From an uncultured virus (IMG/VR IMGVR_UViG_3300037010_002878) (Duplodnaviria > Heunggongvirae > Uroviricota > Caudoviricetes): 64,000 bases of DNA. The translations under genes and the position numbers were made by a program. The notes below the pieces were generated by a model, which worked only from the letters and a program-made list of their open reading frames with translations, had not been told where the DNA came from and searched no databases. Shown here one piece after another: positions 1 through 63,699 of the stretch. Each line of letters starts with the position of its first letter. Positions within the stretch are counted from its first letter, which is position 1. The DNA is taken from IMG/VR virus record IMGVR_UViG_3300037010_002878, positions 1-64,000 of that record. The stretch is one strand, 5' to 3'.

Positions 1-21
1 GGGGAATCAAATTCCCCTTTA
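1..21 (-). terminator. Intrinsic terminator-like hairpin downstream of Asn-rich leader ORF (3' tail cut off by window edge)
   Basis: Minus strand AAAGGGGAAT-TTG-ATTCCCC: 7-bp G/C-rich stem about 10 nt after the leader stop. Any U-tract would lie outside the window. Confidence 0.65.
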
Positions 22-29
22 AAGAAAAC

Positions 30-173
30 TTAGATTGAAGTGTTCTGTAAAGAAGAATTATTTAACCATTGTTGGCATTGCCCCAACCCAGCTAAATTTA
101 GTAGATTATTGCGGAGCACGTTATTACGATTTGCTGCGTTGATATTAACGATGTTGTTGTTTACGTTATACAT
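30..173 (-). CDS. 47-aa Asn-rich putative leader peptide (not in ORF track)
   Basis: Manual translation MYNVNNNIVNINAANRNNVLRNNLLNLAGLGQCQQWLNNSSLQNTSI*. RBS AAGGAG 7 nt upstream, promoter at 240-261. Confidence 0.7.
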   Translation of the reverse strand: MYNVNNNIVNINAANRNNVLRNNLLNLAGLGQCQQWLNNSSLQNTSI

Positions 174-239
174 TTACGTGCTCCTTATTTTTATTTTATT
201 TATTGTTTGAAAAATTACTTTTTCTTTTTATGTATATGT

Positions 240-261
240 ATTATAACACAATATACCTTAA
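240..261 (-). promoter_or_regulatory. Host-type sigma70 promoter TTAAG-N11-TATAAT (extended -10) driving Asn-rich leader
   Basis: Minus strand TTAAG gtatattgTGt TATAAT; the same motif recurs at 8 other sites. Confidence 0.7.
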
Positions 262-342
262 AGTTGGATTAAATTTATTAACTTTTGTGAAAGACTTTTC
301 ATTTAAGAAAATATTGCCCTTCATAAAAATTAATTAAAGGTT

Positions 343-419
343 TGTTGCTAGACGGAATTGCACTGTATCTGGAGTGTCCAATGTGCTCTCCTATTTTACT
401 ATTATAACTACAAGCAACA
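343..419 (-). pseudogene. Degenerate tRNA-like element
   Basis: Acceptor-like pairing TGTTGCT/AGCAACA, T-loop-like GTGCAATTC, imperfect central stem around TTGGA, no CCA. Confidence 0.3.
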
Positions 420-426
420 TATCAAA

Positions 427-510
427 TGGTGGGTATGGTTGGACTTGAACCAACAGTCAGAAAGAACGGTTTTACAGACCGCGCGGCTACCAATTACCGG
501 TTACACACCC
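427..510 (-). tRNA. trnY: tRNA-Tyr(GTA) copy 1
   Basis: Cloverleaf GGGTGTG/CATACCC, loop CTGTAAA, long variable arm, GTTCAAGTC T-loop, encoded CCA. Confidence 0.93.
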
Positions 511-667
511 ATATAAAACTTCATCTTGTGCAACATAGGAATGTGAACGTTGAACGTTATAGCCTCATTCCAAGCACATAAGCCTTGCAGAAGATATGAT
601 AGTTTCATCACTGCAATGACTTCAAAGTTTTAATAATAATATTCTAAAATGTCATTATTAAAACTTT

Positions 668-741
668 TGGTGCTCGTACCCAGAGTTGAACTGGGGTTAC
701 GCCGTTATAAGCGGGGCGCTCTACCATTAAGCTATACGAGC
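668..741 (-). tRNA. trnI: tRNA-Ile(TAT), rare AUA-reading anticodon
   Basis: GCTCGTA/TACGAGC acceptor, anticodon loop CT-TAT-AA, T-arm CCCAG-TTCAACT-CTGGG, ACCA end. Confidence 0.9.
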
Positions 742-783
742 ATATAAAATGTTTCGTATATCAGATATGTCTGTTTCCATCAT
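727..783 (-). CDS. Mini-ORF (17-18 aa) with three ATA codons, overlapping the 5' end of tRNA-Ile(TAT)
   Basis: AAGGAG-cat-ATG ATG GAA ACA GAC ATA TCT GAT ATA CGA AAC ATT TTA TAT GCT CGT ATA GCT TAA = MMETDISDIRNILYARIA*. Confidence 0.5.
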   Translation of the reverse strand: MMETDISDIRNILYARIA

Positions 784-874
784 ATGCTCCTTTTGTTTTT
801 TAATTACTTTTTATGTACAAATATTAAGAATATAATCCAACTTAAAGTTGGTATATTCAAAAAGAATTTCTAAA

Positions 875-1762
875 TCAATCGTACCATTTATCTCTTGTAC
901 TTGATACGATTAATATGTCTTTATCTAGCTTAAAACTTGTCTTATTATCGCCGAAAACTAGTTTTACTGCATACATTACATCATCTTCACCATATTTAGT
1001 TATTAGCTTTTTAAGGTTAAATTTAGTTGTTATATATGTACGTGTACCTGATACATATGGTGATGATGGAATTGAACTTGATGATGCATCAGAACTAATA
1101 GGTTTCAATTTTTTAAGTTCACGTATAATTTCCGTAGAAGATAATTCTTTAGAAAACACTTCTGAAAATTTTTCTTTAGCGTCTTTAAATGCTTTGAATT
1201 TATTATCAATATCATTTATTAGCGCATTTGCTATAACTCCATCAAAATTACCTTTTGCAAACACTTCCAATTCAGTAGAAGTTCCATTGTCAAAGATGAC
1301 TTTTCCATACACCCCTGATACATAAGTACTGTCCTTAACATTATTCCTTAAATTTTCTACTTTTTTAATTGATGTATATGCTTTCTTATCCAAAGCATTA
1401 ATAATCAAACCTTTTCTGAACGTTGATACGTACTCATTCCATTCAGGAATTTTATATGATTTTGATTCTTTTACATCAAGTGAGTTGTTGTTTTCGGTGT
1501 ATAATCTTACCAACACTTCCATATTATCTGTAATATATATAGATAGGATAAACGGAAGGTTATTAATCCTAACCTTAAAGTAAGTTACCCTTCCTTTGTT
1601 TTCTGTGAAATATATACCTGACCAATATCTATCACCTATCCAAGGATGTAAACTAACTTTGTCCTTGATACCCCACGCACTTTTATTACTGAAATTAACA
1701 TTTTTCAATGCATCATCGATAAATGTATTGCTCTCTTCAAATAGTTCTTTAAATTGCATCAT
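875..1762 (-). CDS. Hypothetical protein, possible internal head protein
   Basis: 295-aa ORF preceded by late promoter TATAAATA (1781-1788). N-terminus MMQFKELFEE resembles T4-type capsid-targeting sequences. Confidence 0.7.
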   Translation of the reverse strand: MMQFKELFEESNTFIDDALKNVNFSNKSAWGIKDKVSLHPWIGDRYWSGIYFTENKGRVTYFKVRINNLPFILSIYITDNMEVLVRLYTENNNSLDVKESKSYKIPEWNEYVSTFRKGLIINALDKKAYTSIKKVENLRNNVKDSTYVSGVYGKVIFDNGTSTELEVFAKGNFDGVIANALINDIDNKFKAFKDAKEKFSEVFSKELSSTEIIRELKKLKPISSDASSSSIPSSPYVSGTRTYITTKFNLKKLITKYGEDDVMYAVKLVFGDNKTSFKLDKDILIVSSTRDKWYD

Positions 1763-1797
1763 TATCCCTAATTTTATGATTATTTATAATTAGGCCT

Positions 1798-1873
1798 TGG
1801 TTGCTGTTGCAGGAGTTGAACCTGCTGTCTCTGGGTTATGAGCCCAGCGGCGAAACCGTTTGCCCCTACAGCT
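1798..1873 (-). tRNA. trnM: tRNA-Met(CAT), initiator-like
   Basis: Loop CT-CAT-AA, three G-C pairs in anticodon stem (CTGGG/CCCAG), 1:72 mismatch, CCA. Confidence 0.88.
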
Positions 1874-1885
1874 ATATAAAATTTT

Positions 1886-1960
1886 TGGTCCTCGATGATT
1901 GAATCGAACAATCATTTTGCGATTATCGGTCGCATGTACTAACCGTTGTACGAATCGAGG
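1886..1960 (-). tRNA. trnI: tRNA-Ile(GAT) copy 1
   Basis: Stem TGCGA/TCGCA, loop CC-GAT-AA (C33), CCTCGAT/ATCGAGG acceptor, ACCA. Confidence 0.88.
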
Positions 1961-1965
1961 ATGAA

Positions 1966-2048
1966 TGGTGGTTAGGTGTGGTTTCGATCCACTCCCGTAA
2001 AGACAGGTTTTACAGACCTGTTGCCAGAGCCACTGGCTTTACCTAACC
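1966..2048 (-). tRNA. trnY: tRNA-Tyr(GTA) copy 2
   Basis: GGTTAGG/CCTAACC acceptor, CAGGT-CTGTAAA-ACCTG, long variable arm, ACCA. Confidence 0.9.
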
Positions 2049-2053
2049 ATATA

Positions 2054-2127
2054 TGGTGCCCAATGACTGAATCGAACAGTCGACAACTGATTACAAATCA
2101 GTTATTATACCTCTTAACTAATCGGGC
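2054..2127 (-). tRNA. trnT: tRNA-Thr(TGT)
   Basis: Loop TT-TGT-AA in ACTGA/TCAGT stem, GTTCGATTC T-loop, ACCA. Confidence 0.92.
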
Positions 2128-2139
2128 ATTTTATCTTTT

Positions 2140-2232
2140 TGGAGGGCAATGTCGGGTACGATCCGACAAGAGTTTTTTAGGCTCTGCTAGTTTTCAAGAC
2201 TAGTGCAATTATTCCATTTCTGCCAATTGCCC
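2140..2232 (-). tRNA. trnS: tRNA-Ser(TGA)
   Basis: Loop CT-TGA-AA in CTAGT/ACTAG stem, long variable arm, GGGCAAT/ATTGCCC acceptor, CCA. Confidence 0.88.
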
Positions 2233-2237
2233 ATGTT

Positions 2238-2311
2238 TGGTAGTTCTAGAAGGTACTGACCCTTCGTCTATCCCTTATCAAGGGATTACTCTGCCATTGA
2301 GCTATAGAACT
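2238..2311 (-). tRNA. trnI: tRNA-Ile(GAT) copy 2
   Basis: ATCCC-TTGATAA-GGGAT, AGTTCTA/TAGAACT acceptor, atypical T-loop GTCAGTA, ACCA. Confidence 0.87.
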
Positions 2312-2319
2312 ATTTGTTT

Positions 2320-2394
2320 TGGCGATCTTGAGGAATTTTGAAATCCCGACCCTTCCGCTGACAACGGAGCACTCTGCCTCTGAGCTACAAGATC
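2320..2394 (-). tRNA. trnD: tRNA-Asp(GTC) copy 1
   Basis: Loop TT-GTC-AG, GATCTTG/CAAGATC acceptor, G discriminator, CCA. Confidence 0.88.
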
Positions 2395-2405
2395 ATTTAA
2401 ATTAT

Positions 2406-2482
2406 TGGTGGAGAATACGGGTTACGCTCCCGTCTTCCTACGTTGCAAGCGTAGAGTAATCAACCTAATATACTAATTCCCC
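2406..2482 (-). tRNA. trnA: tRNA-Ala(TGC)
   Basis: Loop CT-TGC-AA, acceptor GGGGAAT/ATTCTCC with the G3:U70 Ala identity pair, ACCA. Confidence 0.92.
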
Positions 2483-2642
2483 ATTTTTAAATTTCATTTT
2501 TACGACCCTTAAGACAACCTAAATTTTTTCATATTCAGGAAAAGATTCTTTTTCTTTATTTTCTTATTTCAACATTGAATTATTAGTTTCCCATTTAAGG
2601 TACTTACAACGTTCGCTACGTGAAAGCTAATTCTTGAACGTC

Positions 2643-2714
2643 CGGTCCCACGGGGAATTGAACCCCGATCTCATGGCTGACAACCACATATAATAACCAC
2701 TATACGATGAGACC
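2643..2714 (-). tRNA. trnD: tRNA-Asp(GTC) copy 2 (no encoded CCA)
   Basis: Loop TT-GTC-AG, GGTCTCA/TGGGACC acceptor, CGGGG-TTCAATT-CCCCG T-arm, G73. Confidence 0.85.
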
Positions 2715-2726
2715 ATTTTAAATTTT

Positions 2727-2802
2727 TGGTAACACTAACGGGGCTCGAACCCGTAACATATCCTTGAAAGGGATATAAGATAACCTATTTCTCCATAGTG
2801 TC
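2727..2802 (-). tRNA. trnE: tRNA-Glu(TTC)
   Basis: TATCC-CTTTCAA-GGATA, GACACTA/TAGTGTT acceptor, ACCA. Confidence 0.9.
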
Positions 2803-2812
2803 ATTTAACAAT

Positions 2813-2901
2813 TGGTGGTCAGTCTTGGAGTCGAACCAAGAGTCCTTACGAAACCGGGTTACAGCCGGTGCACCTATCCAGTTAGTGTTGATTAACTGAC
2901 C
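2813..2901 (-). tRNA. trnY: tRNA-Tyr(GTA) copy 3
   Basis: ACCGG-CTGTAAC-CCGGT, GGTCAGT/ACTGACC acceptor, long variable arm, ACCA. Confidence 0.88.
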
Positions 2902-3030
2902 ATTCTTTGAGAAGTTTTAAGTAAACTCTCGTAAAAGACTGCTAATTCAGAACACAATAAACTCGCGTTATATTGTACTTAAAATGAAATAATTGATTGA
3001 ATTTGTCCGAATGGACTGAGGATTCATTCA

Positions 3031-3068
3031 ATGTCTTTCATTTCTGAAAGACATAAATGACTTTCAGA
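3031..3068 (-). promoter_or_regulatory. Mutually exclusive hairpins (putative attenuator) right after leader-peptide stop
   Basis: Minus strand TCTGAAAG (3068-3061) can pair with CTTTCAGA (3050-3043). This competes with the perfect 10-bp hairpin ATGTCTTTCA-GAAA-TGAAAGACAT (3054-3031). Confidence 0.6.
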
Positions 3069-3194
3069 TTAGATAATATCTGTCTCCGATGCAATCGCAT
3101 CCGTTTCAGAAATAGAGTAGGCATAGGTATAATCAGATGTGTTTACTGATGTATATGATATTACATTTACTGTTGAGTACATTGTGTAAATCAT
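3069..3194 (-). CDS. 41-aa putative leader peptide of the tRNA operon (not in ORF track)
   Basis: MIYTMYSTVNVISYTSVNTSDYTYAYSISETDAIASETDII*. RBS AGGAG 7 nt upstream, promoter at 3229-3250. Confidence 0.75.
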   Translation of the reverse strand: MIYTMYSTVNVISYTSVNTSDYTYAYSISETDAIASETDII

Positions 3195-3228
3195 TTTGTT
3201 TCTCCTATGTTTCTTTTTATATGTTGTT

Positions 3229-3250
3229 ATTATATCATATGTTACCTTAA
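3229..3250 (-). promoter_or_regulatory. Promoter TTAAG-N11-TATAAT for leader plus tRNA array
   Basis: Minus strand TTAAG gtaacataTGa TATAAT. Confidence 0.72.
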
Positions 3251-3285
3251 AATAACATTAAATGATACAAATCTTTTTCTTTTAT

Positions 3286-3672
3286 TTATTGTTTGAAAAA
3301 TACGTCCGTTGCAATTTTAGCATACAAATTATAGTTAAGATCTTTCAATTCCAATTGTTCAATAACGTCTAAGGCTTTATTCTTAGTAAGTGTTGGAAAC
3401 GACAAATCAATATTGTTTGCCAAATATTCTTTTATTTCTTCTAAAGAAATTGTAGCGCTGAACTTGCTTGTGTTTTCATTTACTTCTTCATTTAAACGTT
3501 CTAATACAAGTTCACGTCCTACTTTTTTTGAAAACATATCTTTGCTTGAGCAGACTGAACATGCCAGAAACAATGAATCATCATTGTACATCCATCCCAA
3601 GGTGACACCGCCTTTATTACCTTCAAATTGAAAGTGTTTAAATCTTGTATTATCCAATGTCGCTGTTAACAT
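3286..3672 (-). CDS. Hypothetical phage protein (CxxxDxFxKKxGR motif)
   Basis: 128-aa ORF with RBS AAGGA and own promoter (3702-3723). Confidence 0.75.
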   Translation of the reverse strand: MLTATLDNTRFKHFQFEGNKGGVTLGWMYNDDSLFLACSVCSSKDMFSKKVGRELVLERLNEEVNENTSKFSATISLEEIKEYLANNIDLSFPTLTKNKALDVIEQLELKDLNYNLYAKIATDVFFKQ

Positions 3673-3754
3673 TTTGTTTCCTTCTTATTTTAAATTATGT
3701 TATTATATCAGCACTTACCTTAAAATCTTATAAATAAAACAAAAAGGAGGGAGT

Positions 3755-4384
3755 ATGGCTTGGAACTTGAATAATAAAACCAATGAATATATATTACATC
3801 GAAACCAATCTAAAGAATTAATTGATATATATGGCGTCCAATTGAGTTATTTCAAGATAACCAATAAAGGCAAAAATACTGTTTTTCAAGAATATACATA
3901 CAAAGAATCTAATCCCAATAATGTTTTTTCAATTATGATGTATCCAGAGAATGTAGAAGCATTTGACAACGCTGGTGATTTATTTAGCAAGTTTGGTATG
4001 CAGATTACGGATACGATTAATTTGATTGTAAGCACAGAAACATTTAAAGACATATATGACTTAACCGATTTTAAAAATGCATTTCAATCAGTGGGAGATA
4101 TTATAAAAACTCCTAGAGGAAAATTATTTGAAGTAACAGGTGTTGAAGATGAAGTTCCCGGGTTGAGCAATATATTCACATCAAATAACGGAAAAAATGT
4201 ATTAATGTTAAAATGTAACATATACAATTATAAACCATCAGACAAGGTTCCAGAAATTGTAGATCCTAGTGAGTATGATTTTTCAAATTTAGATTCCGTC
4301 TTTAACGGTCAGAAAGAAGAACAAGAAGTAGAAACTACAACATATACAGCTCCTAGAGATTCTGTATTTGGAGATTTAGGATAA
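3755..4384 (+). CDS. gp14: Neck (head-tail connector) protein, T4 gp14-like
   Basis: Motifs ELIDIYG, GDLFSKFGMQITD, GDII..LFEVTGVE; late promoter TATAAATA at 3729-3736. Confidence 0.85.
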   Translation: MAWNLNNKTNEYILHRNQSKELIDIYGVQLSYFKITNKGKNTVFQEYTYKESNPNNVFSIMMYPENVEAFDNAGDLFSKFGMQITDTINLIVSTETFKDIYDLTDFKNAFQSVGDIIKTPRGKLFEVTGVEDEVPGLSNIFTSNNGKNVLMLKCNIYNYKPSDKVPEIVDPSEYDFSNLDSVFNGQKEEQEVETTTYTAPRDSVFGDLG

Positions 4385-4395
4385 GGAGATAAATA

Positions 4396-4725
4396 ATGAC
4401 TACAGTTTTAAATTCTACAATGGGTGTAACTAATTTTACATCTATTCCAACAGCACCTACAGCTACTAAAGGGGATAGTTCACTTAAATTAGCTACTACA
4501 GAATTCGTTATGAATGCTTTATCAGGCGTAAGTACAACTAAATACAAATTCGTAGCAACAGACGGACAAACTGTATTTAATGCTGGTGCAGTTTTAGTTG
4601 ACCCAATGGTTTATCTAAACGGTGTTCTTCAAACAAAAGATTTGAGTTATACATTCACACCTGGTGCAACATCAATAACCTTTTTAGATGCTAGGGTTCT
4701 TAACGAAACTGTAGTAATTGCATAA
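4396..4725 (+). CDS. Small tail-fibre-related protein
   Basis: PTAPTATKGDSSLKLATTEFV fibre repeat followed by an ATDGQTVF...VYLNGVLQ...SYT beta domain. Confidence 0.7.
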   Translation: MTTVLNSTMGVTNFTSIPTAPTATKGDSSLKLATTEFVMNALSGVSTTKYKFVATDGQTVFNAGAVLVDPMVYLNGVLQTKDLSYTFTPGATSITFLDARVLNETVVIA

Positions 4726-4734
4726 GGATTATTA

Positions 4735-5778
4735 ATGTATGAAAATTCAATAGTAGTAGTAAAAAATTGTACATCAACCGGCATAGATGTAATTCCTATT
4801 AATTCATTAATATTAAATAAAGATACTGGTGATATTTTTTTATTAACAAATAAAACAAACGTATCATCTACTACACAATTTTGTGATGTAGTAGGTAAAG
4901 TATTAATCGCTAGTCTTGTTATAAGTGGAGCATTGTTTTATGGCGGTAGTAATAATATAAATCTAAATTTAGCTACCATGCTATCAGCAACGGCTACATT
5001 AGTTCAAGCTGAAAAGAGTGTAGGTACAGCTAGATATGGATTAGCTGGAGCTAACGTAGGTACAAATGCTTTATTTTATGGTGGATATACTACAACATAT
5101 GTATCTACCACTACTTTATTATCACCAACAATTAATTTAGTACAATCAGAGACTAATGTAGGTACAGCTAGGGCTACCCCAGCTGGGGCTAAGGTTGGTA
5201 CAAATGCTTTATTTTACGGTGGTGCCGTTGATTCAAGCTATTATGGGGTAGATACCGTAACATTACTATCACCAACAGCTACATTAGTTCAAGCTGAAAC
5301 AAATCTTGGAACATCTATGTACTCATTAGCTGGAGCTAACGTAGGTACAAATGCTTTATTTTATGGTGGAGCTAATTATGGAAGCTATAATACAGCTTCT
5401 GTAGTATCTCCATTGGGCGTCTTAGTATCTCAGTCTACTAATATAGGTACAGCTAGATTTGGCCTAGCAGGAGCAAATGTTGGTACGAATGCTTTATTTT
5501 ATGGTGGAATACAAATCTGGCCCACTGTTCTCAATACAACTACTTTGTTATCACCGACGGCTGTTTTATTACAAGCTGAAACAAGTGTTGGATCAGTAAA
5601 ATGGTCAAATTCTGGAGTTAATGTTGGTACAAATGCCCTATTTTATGCTGGGTGTAATGATGCATCAACAACATTTATCAATACTACTACACTACTATCA
5701 CCTACCGCAACATTAGTACAGCCAGAGACTAATGTTGGAACATCAGGCCGTCATTACTTAGGAGGAGCATTAATATGA
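4735..5778 (+). CDS. Kelch-like beta-propeller repeat virion protein 1
   Basis: About six ~47-aa repeats ALFYGG-x-TTLLSPTATLVQAETNVGTARYGLAGANVGTN. Confidence 0.75.
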   Translation: MYENSIVVVKNCTSTGIDVIPINSLILNKDTGDIFLLTNKTNVSSTTQFCDVVGKVLIASLVISGALFYGGSNNINLNLATMLSATATLVQAEKSVGTARYGLAGANVGTNALFYGGYTTTYVSTTTLLSPTINLVQSETNVGTARATPAGAKVGTNALFYGGAVDSSYYGVDTVTLLSPTATLVQAETNLGTSMYSLAGANVGTNALFYGGANYGSYNTASVVSPLGVLVSQSTNIGTARFGLAGANVGTNALFYGGIQIWPTVLNTTTLLSPTAVLLQAETSVGSVKWSNSGVNVGTNALFYAGCNDASTTFINTTTLLSPTATLVQPETNVGTSGRHYLGGALI

Positions 5779-6893
5779 GTTTTGAAAGACAGTCTCTTGT
5801 TGTTTTTAAAGATGAGTCATCAACTGGAATAAACTTTGTTGCAAATAATAGATTTGTATTTGTGAACTCAACTGGATATATGTATATTAAAGTTAATTCA
5901 ACTAATATCACTACCAATACCACCATAGCACAAGCAATTTCAGGTGCAAATTTAATTTTAATAACTGGAGTTATTCCTGCTCCACCAACAACGACAACAA
6001 CGACAACAACGACAACAACGACAACAACTACTACAACAACGTCAACTAGTTTTACCAAAGCTTTATTTCATAATGGGATAGATAGTTCACCAACAAGTGT
6101 ATCAACAACCACATTGTTATCTTCAACGGCTACTTTAGTTCAAGCAGAAACTTCAGTAGGTACAGCAAAATTTGGCGTAGCAGGAGCCAATGTTGGTACA
6201 AATGCATTATTTTATGGCGGAACAGATAATTCTTATTATTACAACACAGTTACATTATTATCACCAACTGCGACATTGGTTCAAGCTGAGTCTACTGTTG
6301 GGTCAGGAAGAAGTTATATATCTGGAGCAAATGTTGGTACAAATGCACTATTCTATGCTGGGTACAATTCTGGATATAAGAATACGGCAACAATATTGAC
6401 ACCTACTGGTTCATTGGTTCAAGCTGAGTCAACTGTAGGAACAGTGAGAACTGGAACGGGTGGAGCCAATGTTGGTACAAATGTATTATTTTATGGTGGA
6501 ACAAATGGTTCATATTTTAATACAGCAACACTGTTATCATCAACAGCTACTTTGGTACAAGCGGAATCAAATGTTGGCACAGCACGGTCATATACTGCTG
6601 GAGCTAATGTTGGTACGAATGCTTTATTCTACGGTGGGTATAATGGTTCATACTTAAATACAGCAACACTGTTATCATCAACAGCTACTTTGGTACAAGC
6701 TGAATCAAATGTTGGTTCTACTAGACTTGGACCAGCAGGAGCTAACGTAGGTACAAATGCTTTATATTATGCTGGGGCTAATAGTGTTAAATTAAATACT
6801 GCTACATTATTATCGCCAACAGCTACTTTAGTTCAAGCAGAAACTAATATAGGTAGTACACCTAGACATGGACTCGCAGGATCTAGTTTATAA
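5775..6893 (+). CDS. Kelch-like beta-propeller repeat virion protein 2 with poly-Thr linker
   Basis: Same N-domain and six repeats; PAPP-T18 linker. Confidence 0.78.
   Translation: MSFERQSLVVFKDESSTGINFVANNRFVFVNSTGYMYIKVNSTNITTNTTIAQAISGANLILITGVIPAPPTTTTTTTTTTTTTTTTTTSTSFTKALFHNGIDSSPTSVSTTTLLSSTATLVQAETSVGTAKFGVAGANVGTNALFYGGTDNSYYYNTVTLLSPTATLVQAESTVGSGRSYISGANVGTNALFYAGYNSGYKNTATILTPTGSLVQAESTVGTVRTGTGGANVGTNVLFYGGTNGSYFNTATLLSSTATLVQAESNVGTARSYTAGANVGTNALFYGGYNGSYLNTATLLSSTATLVQAESNVGSTRLGPAGANVGTNALYYAGANSVKLNTATLLSPTATLVQAETNIGSTPRHGLAGSSL
5988..6041 (+). repeat. ACAACAACG-type microsatellite encoding poly-Thr
   Basis: About four 9-bp units in an 18-codon Thr run. Confidence 0.9.
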
Positions 6894-21306: not shown

Positions 21307-22935
21307 TTATAGGAAATATTTTATAGTGCCACAATCCCAATATCTATCCATATCCATTATTTAGCATATTTTCATATTCCGTTAACTCAGAATCAAACAC
21401 TTCAAGTAATTTTTTTTAGTTTATGTTTCATAAATGTAGATCTATGAAAAACCTCTCCATCTTTAAAATACCAATAAGATGGAGGAGTTATTTCCGATTT
21501 CTTAGAAAACTCCTCATAAACTTTTTTCCCAGGATTTCTAGATATATCAGCATAAGATATTATATTTTCTGATTCATAATTTAATTTAAAATATGATAAA
21601 AATTTACTAAACATTCCTGGGATATGGAAATCTAATAAAGTGCAAAATCTAGATAGTTCAATCTCTCCGGATTTATATGAGGATTTCTTGAATGTCATTA
21701 CGGACACCAGCTCATCTTTTAAATAAGCCCCTAACTTTACAGATGATATATCTTTTCCTTGGATATGATTATTTTCTAAAAATTCGTTTTTGATATTATT
21801 AGGTATTTCTTTTATAGTGACTTGACGGGCATAACATTTTGTAGATAATTTTTTTAATTTAGACTTAATTATATTTAACTATTTCTTGTTTATTCAACCA
21901 ATGATGTTCAAATATATGAAATAATGTTATTCCCAATTCTTCACTTATTTTCTGTTTGTTTAAATGGTAATTTTTGTCTTTTCCCATAGATTCTGAATGC
22001 CAATATAATCCATTATATTCAAAACCTATATTTAACTCAGGTATAAAAATATCTATTTCATTTACACCTGGCAATCTTTTAGCTTCAGTTCTAAAACCTA
22101 AAGATTCTATAAATTCTTTAACTTCTAATTCAGCATACGATGTCCCGTATGGTTTTGGATTACACATCTTGCATGGATTATAGGTTACATTCTTTAATGA
22201 ATGAGTAAATACATTTTTGCAAGTTTGGCAATGAAGTTCATAAGGAAAAAAATTATTAGATAGCAATATATTGTGATCTAGTAGTTTATTTTTCTGTCTA
22301 TCTATAAAAGCTTGTTGTTTAATATATAAATGTTCAGTTGTAAAACCCTCGGGAGGGGTAGTTAAATTATTTTTCAGGCAATATTTTAATTCAGATATAT
22401 TTAAAGATTTATTATATGGTATATTCAATAAATCCAATAAATTATGTAGATATTTTGAACTAACCTTATCAATCTCAAGAAAACTCCTATCAAGTGAATA
22501 TTTTTCAATAACCTTACACAAAAAATTAGTACATCTGTGCTTATTTTCTTTTCTAACATAAACTAATTGTTTTCCGCAATATCTACATACATTAGATTCT
22601 TTTCTTAAAATGGATTCTTCGTGTTTCTTTGAATTTGATTTTAATAGATTATTGGTACAAGTGCGCTGACATTCATTTGAGCAATATGTTTTGAATTTGT
22701 TATTTCTATCAGGTGAAACTAGATTATTGCACGAGGGATTATTGCAAAATTGTGGTTCGTGTAAATCTAATTTTATATAAAATAATCTAGTACGTGAGGG
22801 GGTATTGTTAGGGAGAAATGGAGTTAGATTTTTTAACTCCATCTCAAATGTAGTATATTTAGATGTGTCTTGGGTACATCTTTTAGAAATGTCACCATCT
22901 GGGTAAAATTGTTTTAATAATTCTAATCTATCCAT
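21307..22935 (-). pseudogene. Hef-like homing endonuclease, frameshifted (ORFs 21865-22935 and 21402-21707 are fragments)
   Basis: EIDIFIPELNIGFEYNGLYWHS continues in another frame as IIKSKL..YARQ..FLENNHIQG..ELVSVMTF, then after further shifts as ELTEYENML..DRYWDCG. Frameshifts near 21875, 21412 and 21350. Confidence 0.8.
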
Positions 22936-62847: not shown

Positions 62848-63699
62848 TTAAAGTTTATTACAAAGCACCATTTCAACATTCTCGTCTGAGTAATTCAATC
62901 TCTTAATGATTTGGATGAATCTTGTTCTGAAACATGGTTCTAACTCTGGGTTTTCTGGCTGTTTCAAATACGTTTCTTTTTTCCAAAGAATTCCATATTT
63001 GTATTTATCTGGAATATCGCTCCAAAAATGACCAAGCTCTTCACATATCTCAACTAGTTCATTGCTTGTTTTGTTTTGACATTCTTTATGGGATAGAATA
63101 CTTTGAGCAAAAACGTTTTTAGAGTTTCGTTCACAATCTCTGGTTCTCCATAAAAGTGAATTAAATGCCTCAGTTTTATCTGGAACTTGAAAAACTCGAG
63201 CATCAAAAAATGCTCTTCCAATTTTTGTCTCCAAAAAAGAAACCTTATTGTTAATTTTATCATATTCTTTAGATAATTCAACAGAAGCAGATCTAACACG
63301 CATCAAACCTTCTTTCTCAGTGTATAATTTACTAAGAGTTTCTCTGATTAATTCATTGAACTTCATTGAAGCAAATGATGCCGCTAATGAAGTTAGTTTT
63401 TGAATTCTTCCAGAATAAATCAAGTTATCATCTGGAGCAAAAATCAAGGTGATTTCGTCAGATTGAGAATAAGCGCAAACTGCTTTAAATTCATCCATCA
63501 ATGCTCTAGCTGTTTCTGCTAATGCATTTGCTAAAAATTCATCGAAAGGTTTTGAGAAACCTTTCGTCCATTTAGAAAAGCCGTGCCCATCAATTCGCAT
63601 GATGGAGTATTTGGATTTATCCAAATAAATCTCTGCACTTGCTTCATATTCTTTAATTCTATGACCGAATGGGTCTTTTTCTTGAATTTTTGAGGTCAT
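62848..63699 (-). CDS. thg1: tRNA-His guanylyltransferase Thg1-like protein
   Basis: RIDGHGFSKWT.GF.KPFD, YSQSDEI, GRIQKL.S, FDARV, WR..D..RNS. Confidence 0.93.
   Translation of the reverse strand: MTSKIQEKDPFGHRIKEYEASAEIYLDKSKYSIMRIDGHGFSKWTKGFSKPFDEFLANALAETARALMDEFKAVCAYSQSDEITLIFAPDDNLIYSGRIQKLTSLAASFASMKFNELIRETLSKLYTEKEGLMRVRSASVELSKEYDKINNKVSFLETKIGRAFFDARVFQVPDKTEAFNSLLWRTRDCERNSKNVFAQSILSHKECQNKTSNELVEICEELGHFWSDIPDKYKYGILWKKETYLKQPENPELEPCFRTRFIQIIKRLNYSDENVEMVLCNKL

Follow-up and report, generated by a model that had tools for sequence, protein, structure and literature searches.

The window, a stretch of 64,000 nucleotides comprising positions 1 to 64,000 of an IMG/VR virus record, derives from an uncultured, T4-like phage that carries two large tRNA blocks, each with a tiny open reading frame (ORF) ahead of it. 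In both cases the elements follow one another in the same order: a promoter, an ORF of 41-56 codons led by a Shine-Dalgarno (SD) motif, a structured RNA, and 11-12 tRNA genes. We refer to the two ORFs as leaders A and C and to the blocks that they precede as arrays A and C. The features of this region are as follows.

3229..3250, minus strand: promoter of leader A and array A, TTAAGGTA-N8-TATAAT, with TG ahead of the -10 element
3201..3207, minus strand: SD motif of leader A, TAGGAGA, 6 nt ahead of the ATG
3069..3194, minus strand: leader A ORF, 41 codons, MIYTMYSTVNVISYTSVNTSDYTYAYSISETDAIASETDII; composition match to array A, homologue in a relative
3088..3101, minus strand: hairpin within the leader A ORF, GAUGC-N4-GCAUC; stem kept in the relative
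2981..3068, minus strand: two-state fold 3' of the leader A stop codon (segment 1, 3061-3068; segment 2, 3043-3054; segment 3, 3031-3040; segment 4, 2981-2990)
1802..2897, minus strand: array A, 11 tRNA genes
727..783, minus strand: ORF 'B', 18 codons, overlapping tRNA-Ile(TAT); unsupported as a leader
427..741, minus strand: tRNA-Ile(TAT) (668-741) and tRNA-Tyr(GTA) (427-510), separated by an AT-rich palindrome (624-667)
240..261, minus strand: promoter of leader C and array C, TTAAGGTA-N8-TATAAT
177..186, minus strand: SD motif of leader C, AAGGAGCACG, complementary to 113-120 (CGTGCTCC, codons 19-21)
30..173, minus strand: leader C ORF, 47 codons, MYNVNNNIVNINAANRNNVLRNNLLNLAGLGQCQQWLNNSSLQNTSI; composition match to array C, homologue in the relative
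38..56, minus strand: candidate antiterminator, 5' arm (last ~9 codons of leader C), pairing with the 5' arm of the terminator
1..23, minus strand: terminator-like hairpin, UUUAAAGGGGAAU-UUG-AUUCCCCUUUAAA, beginning 7 nt past the leader C stop codon, its last 5 nt lying beyond the window start

In the order of transcription, array A encodes Tyr, Glu and Asp tRNAs and, after a 159-nt spacer, Ala, Asp, Ile, Ser, Thr, Tyr, Ile and a CAT tRNA (Met or Ile2). The Tyr gene at 1966-2048 was detected by relaxed ARAGORN only, and the CAT gene at 1802-1872 by Rfam together with relaxed ARAGORN; the window holds three tRNA-Tyr genes overall. Array C (Asn, Asn, Val, Cys, Gly, Gly, four Leu, Gln, Trp) was read in a longer, 100%-identical contig, as it lies outside the window and was therefore invisible to the sequence-only reading that preceded this analysis. 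Lone tRNAs, both in this phage and in its relative, stand directly after the same class of promoter, with no leader in between.

That earlier reading had proposed three short ORFs with ribosome-binding sites (3069-3194, 727-783 and 30-173), two of them with a TTAAG-N11-TATAAT promoter of their own. All three ORFs are indeed present on the minus strand, each with an SD motif, and the promoters are found at 3229-3250 for leader A and 240-261 for leader C, placing a short SD-led ORF between promoter and putatively regulated genes, as is typical of leader attenuators. The promoter motif occurs six times in the window against an expectation of 0.41, a number that none of 100 shuffles reached; all six matches are on the minus strand, two of them upstream of leaders A and C, and within an 18-kb region the motif is also found ahead of at least 10 further genes or tRNAs.

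The amino acid composition of each leader closely mirrors the tRNA content of the array that follows it. Of the 40 residues of leader A, 35 belong to the set served by array A (background 0.473, binomial P=1.2e-7); it also has three Val and two Asn residues, which are served by array C. In leader C, 32 of 46 residues fall in {N,V,C,G,L,Q} (background 0.311, P=9e-8), or 33 of 46 in the set of array C if Trp is counted; its single Cys and single Trp are the two rarest residues, and array C contains tRNAs for both. Each leader ranks first among 412 small ORFs (30-70 codons, in 90.7 kb). The match is lost when the arrays are swapped, with 5/40 residues for leader A and 11/46 for leader C, and Fisher's exact test on the 2x2 table of leader and array gives 1e-8. 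Since array C had not been seen when the correspondence was first noticed, its match to leader C is an out-of-sample confirmation. Matching at the level of codons adds little to that at the level of amino acids: leader C has two Arg codons, both of them CGY, read by tRNA-Arg(ACG), in place of the more usual AGA (P about 0.08), and its Leu codons span all four isoacceptors, which is not significant. None of 16 tRNA arrays from six unrelated cultured phages has a comparable ORF (lowest P 0.018, best rank 5/230), and the generality of the arrangement is therefore not to be assumed.

The claim that codon content would match the tRNAs downstream within the window holds for 3069-3194 (35/40, rank 1/412) and is weak for 727-783, where 5/17 residues fall in {I,Y} (P=0.055). 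The last 15 nt of this ORF are the tRNA-Ile(TAT) gene itself, the predicted fold of its region has -7.6 kcal/mol, and it has neither a promoter of the above class nor a counterpart in the relative. On the grounds of the tRNA overlap, the weak match, the missing promoter and the lack of conservation, we rejected it as a leader.

A relative lineage, with 64% identity in Hc2, retains both leader ORFs, their composition and their RNA folds. When small ORFs tracking array content were looked for ahead of its tRNA arrays, as the earlier reading had suggested, both leaders were recovered: A' (45 codons) has 39/44 residues in the set of its own array (1.6e-10, rank 1/329) and 3/44 in the other set, and C' (56 codons) has 31/55 (5e-7, rank 1/329) and 16/55, respectively. 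The feature expected of an attenuator, an ORF enriched in codons that report on the regulated function, is thus seen at rank 1 in all four leader/array pairs, although the two lineages with full sequence are homologous and their composition matches are hence not independent. The tracking is also imperfect, as C' contains six Val (and nine Ser) residues, but the 18.8 kb of the relative yielded no tRNA-Val. Beyond a search with an Hc2 alignment made from the query and 4 of the 150 listed matches, viral scans with a hairpin pattern and a tRNA-Asn pattern and one metagenome scan yielded no third lineage.

Within the leaders, sequence has diverged while the reading frame has been kept. A and A' share 52% identity across 33 aligned residues with several indels, and all three indels between the two lineages in leader C are multiples of three (6, 15 and 6 nt). 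Among the indels listed for further lineages, in contigs from 4 of 18 sequencing runs, the three within ORFs are 3 or 6 nt long and the nine outside are 1 nt. Leader C differs at a proportion of 0.35 of its synonymous sites (pS) versus 0.57-0.69 in three neighboring genes, which we count as evidence for constraint at the RNA level; its dN/dS of 0.48, compared with 0.11-0.35 in the same genes, leaves room for a peptide function, and motifs such as NRNxVLR, LNLAGL and LQNTSI are kept between lineages. In a search of 5.8 billion clusters, which reaches only sequences sharing 5-residue words and called proteins, among which small ORFs are often missing, each leader peptide matched only itself. An Rfam search of positions 1-4000 (E<=1) gave 22 matches, none of them an amino-acid-operon leader or T-box.

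Alternative base-pairing, likewise anticipated by the sequence-only reading, is borne out for leaders A and C by competing helices at both. In the fold downstream of leader A, helices 1:2 and 3:4 compete with helix 2:3 at nearly equal predicted stability (-40.8 versus -39.5 kcal/mol), and the suggested covariation analysis, with one relative, revealed at least two compensatory pair changes in each of the mutually exclusive helices 1:2 and 2:3. The loop of the hairpin inside the ORF differs between lineages (GAUU versus UUCG). Helix 3:4 is followed by only UU and is therefore not a canonical terminator; none was found in the fold region (2981-3068), and leader A, taken by itself, lacks the intrinsic-terminator feature.

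At leader C, the topology of a terminator and an antiterminator is present. The terminator-like hairpin has a perfect 13-bp stem, a predicted stability of -15.0 kcal/mol (-14.7 in the relative) and the tail UUUAAAUG, with four T among the eight bases past the GC core. It is absent from the listing of the terminator scan and was also missed by the filter of a separate genome-wide terminator search; hairpins of the same shape lie between genes in three unrelated phages, identified by a viral scan with the hairpin pattern. The competing antiterminator is predicted at -12.8 kcal/mol, and at -13.3 in the relative, and is chosen by the minimum free energy fold of the whole leader in both lineages. 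The pairing of the SD motif with its complement within the ORF is also retained in the relative, and in a third lineage a CTC-to-CTT change converts a G-C pair into G-U. Equilibrium folding with imposed ribosome footprints gave a terminator P>=0.9 at most positions and reproduced no switch, so that the argument for a switch in leader C is purely a kinetic one. Leader C has the anatomy of a plausible terminator and antiterminator, with attenuation itself as a candidate mechanism.

We propose that each of the leaders A and C heads one tRNA operon as a translated regulatory ORF acting in cis, a reading to which we assign a probability of about 0.55. Because each ORF is written almost solely in the codons of its own array, how fast a ribosome passes through it would report on the decoding of those codons. 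In leader C, a three-segment attenuator may be formed by the last ~9 codons, which pair with the 5' arm of the terminator-like hairpin. A ribosome reaching the end of the ORF would strip away the antiterminator, the hairpin would form and output would fall; stalling at an earlier codon, for Asn, Val, Leu, Gly, Gln, Cys or Trp, would preserve the antiterminator and allow transcription to enter the array. The outcome would be negative feedback on decoding capacity. The same logic may apply to leader A, judging from its conserved two-state fold (1:2 and 3:4 versus 2:3) starting at the stop codon, where the 3:4 state could act in termination, processing or stability and the response could be of either sign.

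The original proposal of tRNA arrays gated by such leaders is thus retained for two of the three ORFs, which mirror the codons of their arrays and are followed by switchable folds, and abandoned for 727-783. Decoding capacity as sensed here would comprise host tRNAs together with the phage's own, and for this reason the further suggestion of phage surveillance of host tRNA pools is a matter of inference. More broadly, whole tRNA arrays of some phage lineages may be under multivalent leader-peptide control, with a short test ORF serving as a decoding-capacity homeostat for each array; we put this forward tentatively, at a shade under even odds.

The conserved folds could also be explained if the leaders acted post-transcriptionally, the two-state fold, or else ORF translation, determining how the tRNA precursor is processed or how stable it is, for example through entry of RNase E or RNase III. 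From the compensatory changes it follows only that the folds matter, the leader A fold lacks a terminator tail, and a double-strand RNase could plausibly act on helix 3:4, which is long and AU-rich, and on the perfect 13-bp stem that follows leader C. The intergenic position of hairpins shaped like that of leader C in three unrelated phages is, however, that of terminators, and we consider this explanation rather unlikely.

Somewhat less probable again is that the ORFs encode ordinary low-complexity small phage proteins that by chance come first in tRNA operons, the peptide being the product. They do share promoter and SD motif with neighboring small genes, and the conserved reading frame, the dN/dS of leader C and the retained motifs would all fit a functional peptide. 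This leaves unexplained, however, why the composition follows the leader's own array and not the other in two lineages, and why it persists between A and A' despite their heavy divergence; moreover, the 5-residue-word search of clusters found no relative of either peptide, and several of the conserved peptide motifs overlie RNA pairings (SD/anti-SD and the antiterminator arm). A chance origin of ORFs and composition match in AT-rich spacer DNA is very improbable. Low-complexity stretches are common in a genome this AT-rich, and ORF 727-783 illustrates that such ORFs arise, but ranks of 1/412 and 1/329, each obtained twice, the in-frame indels and the lack of a comparable ORF in the 16 control arrays all argue against it.

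Our preferred reading, cis-acting regulation by translated leaders, has its closest parallels in the multivalent leader-peptide transcription attenuators of the enterobacterial thr, ilvGMEDA and ilvBN operons, and also in those of the trp, his, leu and pheA operons. Like these, leaders A and C are promoter-proximal, SD-led, a few dozen codons long and rich in the codons of several amino acids, and downstream of them come RNA helices that exclude one another, with one helix overlapping the stop codon or the end of the ORF. They differ in that the regulated genes are tRNAs instead of biosynthetic enzymes, that they list 6-8 amino acids rather than 1-3, that leader A has no canonical terminator, and that no Rfam leader family is matched. 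The three segments of leader C, also unlike the enterobacterial arrangement, imply that read-through would be the default without translation. In the pheST operon of E. coli, the pheM leader peptide controls an aminoacyl-tRNA synthetase, similarly placing a gene of the translation apparatus under leader-peptide control via the decoding of its own codons, although pheST senses a single amino acid and is a cellular operon whose target is a synthetase rather than a phage tRNA array. T-box riboswitches are likewise 5' leader elements that sense the supply of tRNA in cis, with competing terminator and antiterminator helices, in their case by directly binding one uncharged tRNA, without an ORF.

Phage tRNA arrays can also supply replacements for host tRNAs cut by defense nucleases. 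The present system resembles such arrays in the large number of tRNAs that the phage carries, three tRNA-Tyr genes of the window among them, although nothing in the present results ties it to a host anticodon nuclease or other defense nuclease. Septu is described as cleaving tRNA-Tyr (PMC13096335). The titles and abstract openings of the tRNA-replacement literature make no mention of leader ORFs or on-demand control, and a literature search at the same level of titles and abstract openings found no published account of leader control of tRNA genes.

Phage tRNAs are usually viewed either as constitutive aids to codon usage or as spares for when host defenses cleave tRNAs. If leaders that read the codons served by an array also gate that array, phages would measure and correct decoding capacity array by array, and the principle of leader-peptide attenuation would be widened from amino acid supply to tRNA supply. 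This would represent a new class of attenuation target and a new layer of phage translation control. A small ORF whose composition equals the array content would offer annotators a simple signature, and leader mutations combined with tRNA depletion would provide a testable handle on the timing of phage tRNA production and the reasons for it.

The IMG/VR record, whose first 64 kb form the window, is 76.4 kb long with an estimated completeness of 51%. The phage is a T4-like myovirus: PHROG matches among the window proteins include a gp23-type major head protein, portal, terminase, baseplate and sheath, and the closest cultured major capsid proteins come from Vibrio phage Va1, at 50.7%, and from Campylobacter phages, at about 48%. 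The window's tRNA genes are all on the minus strand, within 427-2897: 11 by default ARAGORN, plus two from Rfam together with relaxed ARAGORN. Three further IMG/VR contigs match this tRNA stretch at 100% identity, and one of them, G001, reaches 14,260 bases past the window's first base.

The sequence-only reading had proposed that three short ORFs in the tRNA region, each led by a ribosome-binding site, are stalling leaders that gate tRNA arrays, and had suggested a possible link to host anticodon nucleases. All three ORFs are present as described, and two, leaders A and C, do possess the promoter attributed to them.

3069-3194, minus strand: leader A, 41 codons, TAGGAGA 6 nt upstream of the ATG
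Downstream of leader A, minus strand: array A, 11 tRNA genes (Tyr, Glu, Asp, Ala, Asp, Ile, Ser, Thr, Tyr, Ile, CAT)
30-173, minus strand: leader C, 47 codons, AAGGAG 7 nt upstream of the ATG
Outside the window, read in G001: array C (Asn, Asn, Val, Cys, Gly, Gly, Leu(CAA), Leu(TAG), Leu(AAG), Gln, Leu(TAA), Trp)
Relative G004: A', counterpart of leader A, 45 codons, with array A' (Tyr, Glu, Ala, Asp, Ile, Ser, Thr)
Relative G004: C', counterpart of leader C, 56 codons, with Asn, Gln, an HNH endonuclease ORF, Leu, Gly, a Cys-like tRNA, three Leu and, later, a second HNH ORF, Trp and Arg

The promoter motif, TTAAGGTA-N8-TATAAT, has six copies in the window where 0.41 would be expected, a number that none of 100 shuffles attains. 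In the neighboring 18 kb it also stands upstream of many small genes and of some lone tRNAs.

The codon content of leader A matches its array as had been claimed. Array C was invisible to the sequence-only reading and hence provides a true test of the leader idea, which leader C bears out beyond the window. Background amino-acid frequencies are those of 67 long ORFs, drawn from 90.7 kb of the window phage, and ranks are among all small ORFs of 30-70 codons in six frames.

Leader composition and tRNA content of the arrays
Leader A: own array's set 35/40; background 0.473; binomial P = 1.2e-7; rank 1/412; other array's set 5/40
Leader C: own array's set 32/46; background 0.311; binomial P = 9e-8; rank 1/412; other array's set 11/46
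A': own set 39/44; P = 1.6e-10; rank 1/329; other set 3/44
C': own set 31/55; P = 5e-7; rank 1/329; other set 16/55

For leaders A and C, the table of own versus swapped arrays gives 1e-8 by Fisher's exact test. The two rarest residues, Cys and Trp, occur once each in leader C, and array C carries tRNA-Cys and tRNA-Trp. Counting against tracking, leader A contains three Val and two Asn, whose tRNAs are in the other array. A blind pipeline, which takes arrays of at least three tRNAs and scores ORFs of 15-80 codons ending no more than 300 nt upstream against the array's set by a binomial, recovers both leaders at rank 1/315.

G004, the only diverged lineage found with full sequence (64% identity in the adjoining head-closure protein Hc2), has promoter, SD-led ORF, fold and array in the same arrangement. 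The alignment of leaders A and A' covers 33 residues at just 52% identity, with several indels; it is composition rather than sequence that is conserved. Three tRNA-Tyr genes in the window phage go with six Tyr in leader A, and one in array A' with three Tyr in A'; a CAT tRNA accompanies an internal Met in the window phage, and both are missing from array A' and A'. These differences go with leader-array tracking. Tracking falls short at C', which has six Val and nine Ser, yet no tRNA-Val was found in the relative's 18.8 kb.

The third ORF, at 727-783, is rejected as a leader. Its 18 codons end with 15 nt inside tRNA-Ile(TAT), its proposed codon match is weak (5 of 17 residues in {Ile, Tyr}, P = 0.055), no promoter of the leader A/C class lies upstream, and the relative lacks a counterpart, an unrelated SD-ATG there running into its own tRNA-Ile(TAT).

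Both leaders are preserved as reading frames. Between leader C and C', all three indels within the ORF are multiples of three (6, 15 and 6 nt), and the untranslated flanks carry indels of 1, 3, 1, 2 and 1 nt. Contigs of four further public runs, aligned to the window at ≥80% likeness, reveal additional lineages; among the changes listed, the three indels within leaders are +6 (two Asn codons), +3 (Ile codon) and +3 (Ser codon), and nine of nine outside them are 1 nt. The listed substitutions in leader C include four toward the array's set (Tyr2 to Cys, Ile to Val, Ala to Val twice) and, in one run, one away from it (Asn to Ile); in leader A the listed ones are Val to Ala, a move toward the set, and Thr to Ile, which stays within it. 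Because leader C has a low proportion of differing synonymous sites (pS 0.35 versus 0.57-0.69 in three neighboring genes) with a higher dN/dS (0.48 versus 0.11-0.35, a noisy estimate at 47 codons), its RNA sequence seems to be constrained and its peptide only loosely so.

The alternative base-pairing claimed for the leaders is found at both A and C, as competing helices retained in the relative. A 12-bp hairpin begins 7 nt past the leader C stop codon (-15.0 kcal/mol; -14.7 in the relative), and its 5' arm can alternatively pair with the last ~9 codons (-12.8; -13.3), the pairing chosen by the minimum-free-energy fold of the whole leader in both lineages. The hairpin tail, UUUAAAUG, falls short of the terminator-scan consensus and the hairpin is absent from the scan's list; hairpins of the same shape lie between genes in three unrelated phages, positioned as terminators are. 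The leader C SD, GGAGCACG, and codons 19-21, CGUGCUCC, are complementary, a pairing also retained in the relative. Past the leader A stop codon, segments 3061-3068, 3043-3054, 3031-3040 and 2981-2990 form helices 1:2 and 3:4 (-40.8 kcal/mol for the region) in competition with 2:3 (-39.5). Covariation, suggested as a check, is seen between the two lineages as two compensatory pair changes in helix 1:2 and at least two in 2:3. Helix 3:4 is AU-rich and followed by UU alone, and is not a canonical terminator.

Several other features lie in and around the arrays. The first gene of array C, tRNA-Asn(GTT) (L018 14062-14148, beyond the window start), is 87 nt with a long extra arm by ARAGORN, unusual for tRNA-Asn, and scores below the threshold of the Rfam tRNA model; both lineages share, without any change, a 24-nt stretch spanning its anticodon arm. 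Array A contains a 159-nt spacer (2483-2641), part of which (2498-2566) has an 81% identical copy adjoining a tRNA-Met ~11 kb off in the longer contig. An AT-rich palindrome (624-667; 86% match to its own reverse complement) directly follows tRNA-Ile(TAT) and could be a terminator or processing site. Between array A and that tRNA lies a 295-aa ORF (875-1762, minus strand) without PHROG match, which looks like an insertion because one related contig skips it entirely, joining 799 to 1797 with 166 other letters between. Two HNH-homing-endonuclease-like ORFs (~4098-4739 and 5567-6340 of the relative's sequence, L044) interrupt array C' beside degenerate tRNA-like remnants, and another ends inside tRNA-Met in the longer contig; all three were assigned by eye from an HHIIP..C..GG motif. 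Elsewhere, the window encodes an HNH/homing endonuclease inside the tail/baseplate module (21865-22935, minus strand; phrog_3339, 2.4e-35) and a Thg1-like tRNA-His guanylyltransferase (62848-63699, minus strand; phrog_4717, 1.2e-59), the phage itself having more than 28 tRNA genes. Two adjoining proteins of 347 and 372 aa (4735-6893, plus strand), neither matching a PHROG family, consist of repeats of ~40 residues, each closing with GANVGTNALFYGG; 17 Thr stand in a row in the second, and a poly-Val ORF is carried on the other strand.

Each leader's composition is linked to its own array too strongly, and with too much conservation, for chance. The leaders could be peptides with a function of their own, which would leave this link unexplained. 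A serious rival is that the arrays are controlled through processing or stability. Since translation alone, of the processes we can name, connects the codons of an ORF with tRNAs, leaders A and C are best read as putative translated cis-regulatory leaders that would couple array expression to decoding of the array's codons. The anatomy of leader C fits attenuation with the usual sign: a ribosome efficiently reaching the stop codon would remove the candidate antiterminator, formed by the last ~9 codons, and one stalled upstream would preserve it. Equilibrium folding with ribosome footprints keeps the terminator-like hairpin of leader C formed at almost every ribosome position; hence, the proposed switch would be kinetic, as in classical attenuators.

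The nearest parallels among known systems are the multivalent leader-peptide attenuators (thr, ilv) and the pheST leader. Neither a leader model nor a T-box model of Rfam matches at E≤1 in 1-4000, and of the titles and abstract openings returned by a literature search none described tRNA genes under leader-peptide control. Controls, scored by the same blind pipeline, were 16-30 kb stretches around tRNA matches in 6 of 33 phage records matched (Aeromonas Aswh_1 and TSW001, Vibrio VCPH, Streptomyces BRock, Microbacterium A3Wally, Proteus Mydo). Their 16 arrays yielded no leader-like composition match (lowest P 0.018, best rank 5/230); therefore, the blind pipeline does not manufacture matches. 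This shows that the codon-matched leader is lineage-restricted rather than a general property of tRNA-bearing phages.
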